This document shows, piece after piece, positions 5,102-62,048 of a DNA stretch of 64,000 bases. The stretch lies in the IMG/VR virus record IMGVR_UViG_3300020048_000100; one strand, 5' to 3'. Both the position numbers and the translations under genes were made by a program. The stretch comes from an uncultured virus (IMG/VR IMGVR_UViG_3300020048_000100) (lineage: Duplodnaviria > Heunggongvirae > Uroviricota > Caudoviricetes). The first letter of the stretch is position 1; each line of letters starts with the position of its first letter. The notes under the pieces are model-generated. The model was not told where the DNA came from, searched no databases, and worked only from the letters and a program-made list of their open reading frames with translations.

Positions 5102-6313
5102 ATGTAGAGAAGGAAGTAGAATTAGAATAATAATGAGCAACCTCAATTAACTGAATTACAGGCTGAATTGATGGAATATGTTGGATTCTTAAAAAACCAA
5201 ATGCCATCTTAGTTTTTATTATCTTCAAAAGAGAATATTATTAAAACAGGATTTTTATTATATGATGAAATAATTGGTGGTATTCCTTTAGGAAAATATA
5301 TTTTAATTAGTAGTCAAGAGGGTTGTGGTAAAACTACATTAATGGTACAATTATAGTAGGCACTGCAAAAACAAGCATACAAGACAATGTATATTGATAC
5401 AGAAAGTAGTATGTCTGAAAGACGAATGAAAGAACTTGGCATGGATGTTAATAAAACAATTTATGTTGTGCCAGATTGTTTGGAAGATTAGTATAGATTG
5501 ATGTGGGAAACAATGAAGCAAAAAGAAATTAAAGAGGATGTTTCACCATTTGTATTTTGTTTTGATTCTAATACATAGACTCCAATTAGACAAGAATTAG
5601 AAGATGATGCTTTATCAGATAAACAACCTGGTCAAGTAGCAAAAGTAAATAGTCTATAGTTGAAAAAACTAATTAAACCTTTATAGAGAACAAATTCAAC
5701 CTTAATTATGATTAGTCAAGTAAGAGATAAATTAAATTTGGGGTTTGGATAGAGTTTTGGACCAAAAGATACAACAACTGGTGGTAGATAGCTAAAATTT
5801 TATGCTCATCAAGATATTGTATTGTAGCCAAAATCTGATGGAACAATGGAAAAAATGGAAATAGATGGTAAAATTATTTCTATTAAATAGAGAAAGAACA
5901 GGATATAGAGCCCAAATATTGAATTTTACATGTAGTTAGATTTTAAAAATGGATTTTCTGATTAGATTTCTAACTTTGTATATTTATCAAATCTTAAAGA
6001 ATCAGATTGGAAAGATTAGAATTTTGAATATATACCATTCAAAACAACTGGTGGTTGGTATGAATTTAAGTATGAAGATAAATATGTAAAGAAGTTTAGA
6101 AGTAAAGAATTTCCAGCATTATATGAAACAGATGAGGAATTTAATAAGTATGTAAAAGAAATAATTTTGCAACACATTCATCAAGTTCATGGTAATTCAA
6201 TGTATGAAGAATCTATTGAAGAAATTGTAGAAGAACAAATTGAAGAATCTACCAATGAATTATTTAACGAAACTGTTACAAAACCTGAAGAAACAGTTTG
6301 GGAAGAAAAGTAA
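5102..6313 (+). CDS. recA: RecA/UvsX-like recombinase
   Basis: GGIPLGK, EGCGKTT, YIDTES, FDS, ISQVRD, TTGGR*LKFYA, KNRI*SP, TGGWY; ends TAA. Confidence 0.92.
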
Positions 6314-6372
6314 TTTTTTTACGTCTTAATAAGAAAGGAAGTTAATTTAATTAAATATTTGGAGGTTATTAA

Positions 6373-8211
6373 ATGAGTAAAGAATTTGTTGTAGGAATTG
6401 ACTTAGGAACCACTAATTCTTGTATTTCTTGGGTTAAACCTGATGGAAGTACCGAAGTTATTCCCAATTAGGAAGGGTCAAGAACTACTCCATCTATTGT
6501 AAGTTTTGTCAATGATGAAATTGTTGTTGGTGAACCAGCAAAAAGATAGGCAATTATGAAACCTGATTTAGTTGTTAAATCAATTAAAAGAAAAATGGGT
6601 TCTGGTGAAACTATTAAAATTGGAAATAAAAAATATACTCCACAAGAAATATCTTCGTTTATTCTGAGAAAACTTGTCAAGGATGCTGAATAGTATCTTG
6701 GTGGAAAAATTAAAAAAGCTGTTATTACTGTACCCGCATATTTTAATGATGCACAAAGACAAGCAACAAAAGAAGCTGGTGAAATTGCTGGACTTGAGGT
6801 TTTAAGAATAATCAATGAACCAACATAGGCTTAGTTGGCATATGGATTAGATAAGAAAGCAGAAGAAAAGGTGGCAGTATATGATCTTGGTGGTGGAACA
6901 TTTGATGTTAGTATTCTTGAGATTGGAGATGGTGTAATACAAGTTATTTCCACAAATGGCAGCAACCATCTTGGTGGAGATGACTTTGATACTGCTTTGG
7001 TAGATTATTTAGTTGATGGATTCAGAAAAGCAAATGGGAAAGATTTAAGTAGAGATAAACAAGCTATGCAAAGATTAATTGAAGCATAGGAAAAAGCAAA
7101 AATTGAATTATCTACAAAAATGCAAACAGATATTAATTTGCCGTTTATATCTAATGATGTAACAGGTGCTTTGCATTTTGAAATGTTAATTACACGATCT
7201 ATACTTGAAAATTTGGTTAAATCTTTGGTTGAAAAAACCAAGCAACCTGTTTTGACTGCAATTGGTGACGCATCTTTGAAAAAAACAGATTTAAATGAAG
7301 TAATTTTAGTTGGTGGTATGACTCGTATGCCACTTGTTCAAAAAACAATTACTGATTTGTTTGGTAAAGAAGGTAGTAAAAATGTAAACCCAGATGAAGC
7401 TGTTGCTGTTGGTGCATAGATTCAATAGGCAATTGTATAGGGAGTGGGAAATGTAAATTCTGATATTGTTCTTGTTGATGTTACTCCACTAACCCTTGGT
7501 GTTGAAGTTCAAGGTGGATTATTGGAACCAATTATTGAAAAAAATACAACAATTCCTATTAAAAAATCCAAAGTATTTACAACTGCAGTGGATAATCAAC
7601 CAGAAGTTCAAATCAGAATATTCCAAGGAGAAAGACCAATGGCAAATGACAATTATTTGCTTGGTAATTTTAGTTTAACTGGAATTCTTCCTGCACCAAG
7701 GCATGTTCCTCAAATTGAAGTTACTTTTGACATTGACACAAATGGGATTGTAAATGTAACTGCAAAAGACTTAGGAACACAAAAAGAGCAAACTATTACA
7801 GTTACAGGTAGAAATAATCTATCCAAAGATGAAATTGACAAAATGATTCAAGATGCTAAACAACATGAAGAAGATGATAAGAAAAAATAGGAAGAAATTC
7901 AAACAAAAAATAATGCAACAAACGAAGTTTATTAGGCAGAAACAATGTTAAAAGAATCAGGAGATAAAATTGATCAAGAAAAACGATAGAATGTGGAGTC
8001 TATTATTGGAGATTTGAAGAAAGCGATTGAGGAAGATAATATAATTAGAATTAAAAGTGTACAAGAAGAGCTAAGAGAAAAAATGATGGAAATTGGAAAG
8101 GATGTATATTCTAAAGTCCAGCCTCAATAGGATCAGGATCAAGTATATGAACAACTGAAAGAGTAGGTTTAGGGAGCCAATGATACTGTTAATGACCCCC
8201 AGAATGGATAA
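6373..8211 (+). CDS. dnaK: Chaperone DnaK (Hsp70), 612 aa with 15 in-frame TAG
   Basis: [60 protein letters not shown] all in one frame; RBS ggagg; ends TAA. Confidence 0.97.
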
Positions 8212-59626: not shown

Positions 59627-59645
59627 AAACCCTCCGTAACTCTTT

Positions 59646-62048
59646 TTAGCAACTCAGAGAATTATATATTTCAAAACTTGCAAATGTTTCTGATATAATA
59701 TCTTCATCAAACTAAGATTCCTACTATTGATTATATTTCTATTTATAATTTAATAATATACACTGTGTATTATTAGACTAATTAAAAGTCTTTACAATTT
59801 TTATTCTGGAATATGTTGTATCAATTATTTGTGGAACTGGAAGAACTGTATCTTTAACTGTATATAATGGTAATATAGTATAATCATACTATATAATTTC
59901 TTCTTGTAATTTTATATTTATTGGATTCTACATTATAAAATTTTCAAACTCTAATGTTTCATTAAATATTTCATTAGTGCCACTTTTAATTATTTCCCCA
60001 ATCTGATTTTCAAATAAGAATAGATTTAAAGAATTTGATATAAAATATTCTTCGTTTGAATTTGTAGATATTGGTAGTAAATACTATGTCTTTATTTTTT
60101 TTGGCTTATTCTAAATAATTTGAAATTGCAATGGTAATATATCATTAGATTCCAAAGTATTTTCTATAATAACATCAAAAGATTCTAAAAACTTTTCCAT
60201 ATTAACATTTATAATGCCATTTACTTCTGATATTGCAGTTAATATATCTATTAAATTTATATTTTCATAAATATTAAATCTATTATTTTCTATTTTAGAA
60301 TACTGATCTAACTTATCTTTTAGATTATAAAATATTGAATTTATAGATATTTTAGAATCCTAAAATATTTCTATTGGATTTTTACTATATATATAATAAA
60401 TTTTATTACTCTAAAACTAAACATCCATTGTCTATATTATATTGTTTTTTAATTCTTGCTGAATATTATATTTTTCTTTTGTATAATTAAATTTAGATAA
60501 TATTATTGGGTCTTTGATTAACTCAGAAGATAATATTTTACTTCCTTTTGGCAAATAGAAATTTCTTAGATTATCATCTTTAAATAACTAAGGGCAAATA
60601 TATAATCTATTTTCTAACCCATTAACATATGATTTATTTTGTATGTATTTATAAGTTGAAGTCTAATTAAGAGAATCAGAAAATCCTCTGAGGAAATATT
60701 TTAAATAATTATTTATGTCATTTATTGTTACTATTTTATTTTTCTATTTAATATATGAATTAAAATTATGTTTTATAGACTCTATTTTTTCCTAATTTCT
60801 CCCAACAACTACATTTTCTTCTTGCTTAACTATAATACTTAATGGGCTATAGCCATAATACTGCATAGATTCATTTGTATTTTGTATATTTAATAAATCA
60901 AATAAATATATTTCTGTTTTTTGATTTTGTAATTCTTCCTATGTTAAATAGCTCTTTGTATTGAAATTGTATTTTATTTTTATTTTTTGAGGGATAAACA
61001 ATCCTTTTATATTGTAATCAGTATAATTATTAAAATCAACATAATTCAAATATATTTTATCATTTATTAAAATTTGAGATTCAAGACCAACATATCTGTT
61101 TACTTGCCCTAATATCTAATTCTAATTTTCACCTTTTGTTTGATAATACTATAAAAATAATGGTAAATCATTCTACTTTATTTTATAACCATTATTAATA
61201 TCATCACCATTTATTAACTCAAAAATATTTGTTATTTCATTATAACTAAGAGTTATATATTTATTTTTAATATAAGAATCATAATCTGATACATGATACT
61301 TACTATTCTAAATAGTTTCTACATTCTTAAATGTATCATATAAATACTCAGTAATATTTCTATTGTTAAACATATATTCAATTTTTGTTTTTGACATTAT
61401 TTTTAGATCTAAATAAAGTCTTTTGAAATCATCTATATAATGATCTTTGATTATATAACCTTCTGTTTCTGATAATATATTATTCCTTGATAGTTCTTCC
61501 AAATTTGGATTAAATGGTTTAATAACCAAATGCATTTGTATAAACTAAAATATATTACTTCCATTTGTGGATGCCATTCTGTATGAATAATATTCATTAT
61601 TTTTTCCAAATTTATCCATTGTTCTTGTAACAAGAATTGAATTTTTATTTAGCCAAATATTGTTATTCTAATCAATGACTCGTAATATCAGAGGTGGAAT
61701 TATAAAATTTTCTATTTCCAGCATATTTAATTGTATCATTGATTTTGAATCAAATTTTAAATTTAAATTAACTTGCGAAGGTATACCAAAATTCTTTTTA
61801 TATCCATATTGACTTAATAATAATTCTATTTTATCATTATTCTATGTTGCAATATAAAAATCTGAAACCTATTGCTCAAATTGATTTGATATTAATACAG
61901 TTATATAACTCTATATATCTGTTATTAAAGACTATGAATCCTATTGATTAAAATCAATATATTTATATTTATCATAATTAGATTTTAAATATTCAATAAT
62001 CTATTCTTTAAGAAAATATGGATTTACTAACTCATTAGGCTATGGCAT
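59646..62048 (-). CDS. Baseplate wedge subunit (T4 gp6-like)
   Basis: IDFN...FYIAT...LLSQYGY at the N-terminus; GRN*EKIESIKHN...IVTINDI; ends TAA. Confidence 0.75.

Follow-up and report, generated by a model that had tools for sequence, protein, structure and literature searches.

The DNA analysed here is a 64-kb stretch (64,000 nucleotides, 23% GC), hereafter called the window, from an uncultured virus recorded in IMG/VR as IMGVR_UViG_3300020048_000100, and the subject of this analysis is the meaning of the codon TAG in its genes. Pfam matches placed HU, RecA, DnaK, glutaredoxin, an Mre11-type phosphoesterase, a PIN-PhoH ATPase and a tail sheath in the window, along with giant proteins of the FN3-repeat and RCC1-repeat types. 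The nearest genome, G001, is a bin of 70 contigs (1.3 Mb). Its larger contigs use the standard code, have ∼25% GC and are referred to below as the presumed host; two further contigs (C9 and C25) and 25 small ones are TAG-recoded, have 20–28% GC and overlap the window in part at 99% identity. These recoded contigs contribute ∼101 kb beyond the window.

Sister contigs of G001 encode DnaJ (C28, positions 3965–5062 of L069), a class II ribonucleotide reductase (RNR), a family-B DNA polymerase, DnaB, a volactin (actin-like) homologue (L092, positions 2810–3859), a gp23-type capsid protein, a T4-type portal and a prohead protease. By Pfam, the T4-like virion set is thus divided between the sister contigs (Gp23, Portal_T4, protease S77) and the window (sheath C-terminal domain), and the window sheath matched T4 gp18 with E = 3e-13. 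The capsid protein was only 25–31% identical to any of its matches in 2,123 GenBank phage records, and no nucleotide match to GenBank phages was found. Searches with the capsid protein gave no match in IMG/VR and none confirmed in GTDB genomes, and G001 was the one match among 401 genomes sampled from the phylum. A DnaK search of IMG/VR returned standard-code contigs only, at 43–51% identity. The phage itself was found in wastewater, activated-sludge, lagoon and bioreactor metagenomes. We conclude that the window comes from a large T4-like myovirus of wastewater communities, of which at least ∼165 kb at ∼23% GC have been recovered.

Throughout the window, TAG serves as a sense codon. Read with the standard code (table 11), the window contains 6 open reading frames (ORFs) of at least 150 amino acids, against 40 when TAG is read through. 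These 40 ORFs are packed head to tail on the two strands and end in TAA (27) or TGA (13), the absence of TAG ends being a consequence of the way in which ORFs were called and not an independent test. Within the TAG-containing ORFs of at least 80 amino acids (Table 1), TAG accounted for 3.36% of 17,876 codons, and the GCN alanine codons for 1.50%. A preliminary description of this DNA had placed the recoding at positions 5102–62048; it is real there, but in fact covers the whole window save a few TAG-free genes. All the DnaK TAGs listed in that description (6469, 6691, 6826, 6832, 7087 and 7417–7438) were recovered, at residues 33, 107, 152, 154, 239, 349, 352 and 356. Its strings from RecA, the nuclease, PhoH and FN3 are likewise present in the translations, but the sheath string is WE-TAG-M-A-GLNRG, with one TAG where two had been read, and the genes beginning with a start codon followed by TAG numbered 7 of 55 ORFs of at least 80 amino acids (six ATG-TAG, one TTG-TAG) instead of eight.

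In principle, the in-frame TAGs might be untranslated, belonging to pseudogenes or arising from faulty assembly or binning. The contigs do fall in the bin of a standard-code bacterium, and nothing else favours this explanation. TAG codons were retained in 305 of 314 comparisons across 7 independent metagenome loci, and the 40 long, tightly packed ORFs need TAG read-through. In DnaK, TAG was retained at all 15 sites in 14 database clusters (P0002–P0015, 93–98% identical), one site in one sequence excepted, as judged from the residue that source pipelines write for TAG. At least half of the sampled words of the window were present in 17 public runs, including three metatranscriptomes (0.61–0.69 of words), and some part of it occurred in 20 runs from 12 studies. 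Retention in the DnaK clusters and at the 7 loci, together with recurrence in public runs, excludes the assembly error that the preliminary description had wanted checked, and an artefactual or pseudogene origin has practically no chance of being correct.

Table 1. Features of the window that bear on the reading of TAG
Feature	Position	Strand	Details
TAG-recoded coding region	20..63878	both strands	in-frame TAG in 45 of the 55 ORFs with 80 or more amino acids
tRNA-Ile(UAU)	1654..1730	+	sole tRNA found in recovered phage DNA; no TAG decoder
Two TAG-free ORFs	1996..2938	+	no in-frame TAG
RecA/UvsX-like recombinase	5102..6313	+	18 TAG codons; 13 in profile match columns, Ala top score
DnaK	6373..8211	+	15 TAG codons; 34 GCN codons
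TAG-free ORF	8344..8952	+	directly upstream of tmRNA
Phage-encoded tmRNA	8974..9300	+	Rfam RF00023, 97.6 bits, E = 7e-37
tmRNA tag frame	9065..9157	+	CCT GTT TAG(9143) ATG TAG(9149) GCT TGA(9155)
PIN-PhoH ATPase	13355..14752	+	12 TAG codons; motif GTGKTLL-TAG-L
Six TAG-free genes (island)	14886..19416	+	F420-ligase-like, RNA ligase, DUF932, three small ORFs
Possible sheath paralogue	22609-24081	-	24 TAG codons; no Pfam match; starts ATG-TAG
Tail sheath	24110-25663	-	27 TAG codons; starts ATG-TAG
FN3-repeat structural proteins	28132..32742	-	TAG at a recurring position in copies of a string of the YYWKVV-TAG-EN type
RCC1-repeat giant protein	32752..37128	-	51 TAG codons
RCC1-repeat giant protein	55916..59626	-	45 TAG codons
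TAG-free ORF	62437-62721		no in-frame TAG

The amino acid at TAG was estimated in the manner of Codetta. Each phage protein was aligned to a profile hidden Markov model (HMM) with X at TAG, and log emission probabilities at match states were summed for each codon. The proteins used were DnaK, RecA and PhoH from the window and RNR from a sister contig, which together contain 72 aligned TAG sites, with HMMs of 105, 141, 106 and 116 homologues, respectively; nearest relatives and rows that themselves looked recoded (Ala <3%, Gln >5%) were left out, one such row (P0042) remaining in the DnaK set. Sense codons with at least 5 sites served as controls. On raw log-likelihood over the four genes alanine ranked top, with serine at −46.4 and glutamine at −108.1 nats relative to it (controls 37/42). 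Normalising each HMM by its own mean emissions, which removes the raw bias to common residues in weak columns, gave +46.9 for alanine, +10.2 for serine and −23.2 for glutamine (controls 42/42). The same normalised scores for the three window genes (36 TAG sites) were +21.6, +6.6 and −6.4 (controls 38/39). None of 20,000 random sets of 72 non-alanine sites matched the observed alanine score (maximum −1.5). Applied to these four genes, a codon inference of the kind that the preliminary description had proposed for the whole stretch returned alanine, the residue it had named.

Glutamine, the residue assigned to TAG in NCBI table 15, is the established alternative: it is what crAss-like, Lak and other recoded phages use and what public protein collections write, and TAG to Gln is the only change of TAG observed in phages in the available text of Borges et al. 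(10.1101/2021.08.26.457843). Database copies of DnaK, RNR and PhoH accordingly carry Q at the TAG sites. The alignments contradict this assignment, as shown by the raw and normalised scores above and by the glutamine score per site, which was +0.88 at the CAR codons for glutamine and −0.32 at TAG.

Individual columns pointed the same way. Among 106 standard-code DnaKs, alanine was the commonest residue at seven of the phage TAG sites, occurring at six of them in 101, 105, 102, 85, 101 and 83 sequences and at the seventh in 45, which bears out the earlier claim that TAGs fall on conserved alanine positions. In each of the three PDB alignments listed for DnaJ, which a sister contig encodes, the alanines of KKAY and EAYEVL are matched by TAG. 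The PhoH motif GTGKTLL-TAG-L was retained in 14 of 14 clade relatives, and bacterial PhoH proteins have alanine or serine there. Glutamine would turn conserved motifs into NEPTQAQLAYG, KKQY and EQYEVL.

Composition provided further evidence for alanine. Over the phage, GCN codons make up 1.49% and TAG 3.10% of all codons, together 4.59%, with CAR at 2.94%; in the presumed host (standard-code G001 contigs) alanine stands at 4.59% and glutamine at 2.88%. TAG is the main alanine codon, encoding about two thirds of phage alanines. If TAG were glutamine, the phage would have 6.0% glutamine and 1.5% alanine; the corresponding figures for the presumed host are 2.9% and 4.6%.

A second rival residue is serine. 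Seryl-tRNA synthetase, too, ignores the anticodon, and a tRNA-Ser(CUA) could be charged as easily. Serine was runner-up in every inference, and T4 gp18 has serine at 3 of 9 aligned sheath TAG sites. We also recorded codon exchanges at TAG sites between near relatives at 92–99% DNA identity, a small sample of nine events: four with serine codons, two with CAA, and one each with GCT (DnaK codon 266), AAG and TAT. The serine exchanges fit alanine as well, because serine codons form the mutational bridge between GCN and TAG (GCG to TCG to TAG). Alanine led serine by 46 nats raw and 37 normalised, and reading TAG as serine would raise that residue to ∼9.6% and leave alanine at 1.5%, where the presumed host has 6.1% and 4.6%, respectively.

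The transfer-messenger RNA (tmRNA) encoded in the window allows the three residues to be compared within one short peptide. ARAGORN stops the tag at TAG, and the frame continues TAG-ATG-TAG-GCT-TGA. A tmRNA tag usually ends in -AA. With TAG as alanine the phage tag ends in PVAMAA; glutamine would give the end VQMQA and serine VSMSA. The tag of the presumed host, from the G001 chromosomal tmRNA, is ADKTELAYAA, ending in AYAA. Three independent contigs, C9 and two from metagenomes, have exactly the tag end of the window. With TAG as alanine the phage tag is unusually long, at 30 residues, and is unlike that of the presumed host.

Taken together, the profile inference with its controls, the composition and the tmRNA tag back the proposal of the preliminary description that TAG means alanine and not glutamine. 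TAG almost certainly encodes alanine. Glutamine is vanishingly unlikely, notwithstanding the database residues, the two CAA exchanges and the glutamine column at DnaK codon 59 that speak for it, and serine very improbable, also in view of the tRNA described below.

The pattern extends to relatives of the phage, whose 'Q' at the relevant sites we take as the rendering of TAG by source pipelines. RNR relatives P0122–P0125 (95, 60, 54 and 52% identical) have 'Q' at 12–17 of 37 conserved alanine columns and contain 1.0–1.5% alanine, and at the TAG sites of the query the next, non-recoded RNR relatives show A, S or G in most cases. PhoH relatives P0251–P0263, down to 38% identity, likewise have 'Q' at conserved alanine columns; some of them, including P0261 and P0259, are encoded on contigs of 204 kb and 231 kb. 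The recoded pattern was present too in RecA P0370 and P0372 and in DnaK P0042. The occurrence of this pattern at conserved alanine columns indicates that TAG is read as alanine by a whole clade and not by a single phage, and public collections would therefore hold many proteins of the clade with glutamine written for alanine.

Eight of 14 PhoH relatives (P0250–P0263) contain no alanine at all (P0253–P0256, P0259–P0261 and P0263), and neither does P0372, among the nearest RecA relatives. These alanine-free stored proteins contain 5–8% glutamine, which suggests that TAG has fully replaced GCN in the genes concerned. In the DnaK of the window, GCN codons outnumber TAG 34 to 15, as if replacement of GCN were still under way. 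This DnaK, which is complete, is 62–67% identical to standard-code DnaKs, and among the matches listed the named ones are all Thermotogota. It is conceivable, although on present evidence unlikely, that alanine is leaving the GCN box altogether in this clade and that the phage could then live without the GCN-reading tRNA-Ala of the cell. If so, the phage could survive, or itself cause, the loss of tRNA-Ala, as a means of host shut-off or of escape from anticodon-nuclease defence, and a suppressor-tRNA and tmRNA module would both decode phage genes and clear ribosomes that have run past host TAG stops.

How might TAG be decoded? The only RNA genes found on phage DNA were tRNA-Ile(UAU) and the tmRNA. 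ARAGORN was applied to the window, to the 70 contigs of G001 (the first 20 kb for C1–C8 and C10–C21), to 7 metagenome loci around the tRNA-Ile, whose contigs extend ∼5 kb past the left end of the window, and to 8 IMG/VR DnaK loci; Rfam was searched at permissive E (up to 1 or 5) on the window and 25 recoded G001 contigs. A search of the whole of G001 with RF00005 found 26 tRNAs, none of them CUA. The scan advocated in the preliminary description, for a CUA tRNA with G3:U70, thus gave no hit in the window or in the ∼165 kb of phage. The missing tRNA(CUA) is weak evidence because the genome is incomplete and because, in the available text of Borges et al. (10.1101/2021.08.26.457843), a suppressor tRNA was present in only 40% of TAG-recoded genomes. 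Contigs of four phage-bearing runs were also compared with the tRNA(CUA) of the relative described next, at 80% likeness; the matches read CCA (middle C), as in tRNA-Trp, and were uninformative on CUA.

A scan of IMG/VR with the PhoH motif GTGKTLL-TAG-L[YF] as DNA gave one match, to a 135-kb contig of a distant relative (IMGVR_UViG_3300002494_000025; G402). Its proteins share 34% (RecA), 39% (PhoH), 31% (PolB), 29% (major capsid protein) and 29% (TerL) identity with those of the phage. Within 700 nt it carries a tRNA-Ala(UGC), then a tRNA(CUA), then a tmRNA that starts 6 nt after the suppressor tRNA and whose tag ends in PLAA. The tRNA(CUA) has G1:C72, G2:C71, a G3:U70 wobble pair, discriminator A73 and G20 (the last read by eye). 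Its acceptor pattern is the same as that of the neighbouring tRNA-Ala, to which it is 68% identical, and it lacks the long variable arm expected of a serine tRNA. A pattern search for alanine-like CUA tRNAs found G402 only in IMG/VR and none in GTDB genomes. G3:U70 was reportedly identified as the main determinant for alanyl-tRNA synthetase (AlaRS) by Hou and Schimmel and by McClain and Foss in 1988, and AlaRS does not read the anticodon; with this pair, the G402 tRNA(CUA) would therefore be charged with alanine by the host enzyme. By analogy, we infer that the phage of the window has an equivalent alanine-type tRNA(CUA) in the part of its genome yet to be recovered. The mechanism put forward earlier, a tRNA-Ala(CUA) charged by host AlaRS through G3:U70, is accordingly plausible by comparison with G402.

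The presumed host uses the standard code, with a coding density of 0.75–0.93 under table 11, and has both release factors, RF1 with the PxT motif and RF2 with the SPF motif. Its long ORFs (n = 304) end in TAA (230), TAG (66) or TGA (8). TGA is rare there (8 of 304) despite an RF2 gene without frameshift, compared with 13 of 40 ends in the phage.

Some phage genes are free of TAG altogether. Ten such ORFs were found in the window (Table 1), where ∼14 TAG would be expected for a 423-codon gene at 3.4%, and sister contigs have further examples, encoding an MT-A70 methyltransferase and an AAA_28 protein. Alanine in the TAG-free genes is 1.76% (GCN, 2,051 codons), so that GCN does not compensate: these genes avoid alanine rather than revert to ordinary codons. 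TAG is at full density in the DnaK, RecA, polymerase, RNR and virion genes. The TAG-free genes are candidate early genes, presumably translated before suppression is established.

These elements can be assembled into a scheme for infection. A phage-encoded tRNA(CUA) bearing the alanine identity set (G3:U70, A73) would decode UAG after being charged by host AlaRS, which does not read the anticodon, and would compete with host RF1. Given RF1 and TAG at 66 of 304 host gene ends, this suppressor must outcompete RF1 and is expected to read through host stops. As infection begins, the still unaltered translation machinery of the host could express the TAG-free genes, and all the others, including those for replication and virion, would have to await the suppressor before they could be translated. 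More speculatively, the phage tmRNA, with a tag that ends in -AA only if TAG is alanine, may handle ribosomes that run through host TAG stops.

Several observations weigh against this account. TAG at DnaK codon 59 lies on a column with glutamine in 105 of 106 DnaKs. The mean alanine log-odds per site is somewhat lower at TAG (0.65) than at GCN (0.86), all other codons being at −0.23. Two of the nine TAG exchanges were with CAA. No tRNA(CUA) came to light in the ∼165 kb of this incomplete genome, and the phage that supplies the tRNA evidence shares only ∼30–40% protein identity with it. The host link to G001 rests only on binning and similar GC.

The first three of these points would also fit ambiguous decoding, in which TAG is read mostly as alanine, with two suppressor tRNAs or near-cognate reading admitting a share of glutamine or another residue. 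Among the 72 sites, codon 59 is the single clear case on a glutamine column. Leucine is found there in the nearest relative, P0016, so the position seems relaxed in the phage lineage, and no supporting tRNA of any kind was seen. Ambiguous decoding is in our judgement improbable. We put the probability of the full explanation, a T4-like myovirus in which UAG is read as alanine by means of the tRNA mechanism set out above, at roughly 0.85.

The sequence of the phage has other peculiarities. CTAG is absent from the window, against 100 ± 9 sites expected from shuffles, despite the abundance of TAG as a codon, and from the ∼165 kb of phage DNA, against 335 expected; no TAG codon is therefore preceded by C. 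Observed and expected numbers for other tetranucleotides in the phage were 0 and 7 for CCGG, 0 and 5 for GCGC, 6 and 34 for GGCC, and 160 and 383 for GATC. The presumed host has 638 CTAG sites (observed/expected 0.85), and G402 has 67, with no avoidance. The absence of CTAG looks like restriction avoidance. GpC odds are 0.85 in the phage and 1.23 in the presumed host; we considered GpC avoidance as a driver of recoding, but the depletion is too mild to tell cause from effect.

The left end of the window varies in orientation. Segment 1–4923, together with ∼1.2 kb to its left, is inverted relative to RecA/DnaK in C9 and L122 as compared with the window, L118, L119 and L124, and L120 fuses the left side of the segment to sequence like that of contig C67 of G001. 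End points of several contigs cluster near 4923–5028, and no inverted repeats were found at the junctions of the segment. It may be an invertible segment, strain variation or a misassembly. In addition, the recoded G001 contigs L084, L097, L106, L108 and L110 encode a large paralogous protein family with a common C-terminal tail (...KE-TAG-KQYFKKIL or ...KE-TAG-KNLFKKL) and no Pfam match.

Alanine is a codon meaning for UAG that is new for phages in the literature searched. A full-text literature search, with subscription journals (e.g. Ivanova et al. 2014) outside its scope, returned no phage or bacterium in which TAG or UAG had been reported to mean alanine, and the available text of the Codetta survey names no stop-to-alanine change. 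In the available text of Borges et al. (10.1101/2021.08.26.457843), TAG to Gln and TGA to Trp are the sole changes seen in phages with a code unlike that of their host. The search and that paper agree with the preliminary description, which knew of no phage example; the precedent it cited, UAG as alanine in green-algal mitochondria, was confirmed (PMC6821328).

Stop-codon recoding in phages, so far described only as these two changes, has been explained by hijack of the glutaminyl- and tryptophanyl-tRNA synthetases (GlnRS and TrpRS). An alanine-reading clade represents a second route, through a synthetase blind to the anticodon, in which a virus has come to encode the larger part of one amino acid with what was a stop codon. 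There is also a practical consequence. Gene callers limited to tables 4, 11 and 15 write glutamine at every TAG, that is, at 3% of residues and often in the most conserved motifs. Throughout the clade, annotation, predicted structures and searches for homologues all suffer from this mistranslation. Our results suggest that other 'code 15' phages merit re-examination.

Compared with the code-15 phages, which include crAss-like and Lak phages and the Garnet, Topaz and Agate clades (10.1101/2021.08.26.457843; PMC9523058, as far as their accessible text goes), the phage of the window is similar in that the stop codon is recoded by the phage and the presumed host retains RF1 and the standard code, in having a small set of genes without TAG, and in that a phage-encoded suppressor tRNA is expected. 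It differs in the residue, alanine instead of glutamine, and in the weight of the codon, TAG being 3.1% of codons, twice GCN, and the main alanine codon. Unlike the late-gene bias of code-15 phages, TAG here is dense in replication genes too, and not just in lysis or late genes. Charging, moreover, would be by AlaRS through the acceptor stem and not by GlnRS through the anticodon.

The same codon and amino acid are paired in the mitochondria of Hydrodictyaceae and Neochloris green algae (Zihala and Elias 2019; PMC6821328, in its available text), where the decoding tRNA(CUA) is closest to tRNA-Ala(UGC). In those mitochondria UAG first vanished and the release factor changed, whereas the virus imposes its code on a cell that has RF1 and, in the presumed host, TAG at 66 of 304 stops. 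Among phages, G402 is similar in having a tmRNA and in-frame TAGs, one of them at the PhoH Walker-A alanine where the phage of the window has TAG too. It is unlike the phage of the window in that TAG is only 1.0% of its codons and GCN 2.6%, its RecA has no TAG, and it carries a tRNA(CUA) with G3:U70 and A73 beside a tRNA-Ala(UGC). Finally, the phage shares the gp23 capsid, gp20 portal and gp18 sheath with T4-like myoviruses, from which it is separated by a capsid only 25–31% identical and the lack of any nucleotide match.

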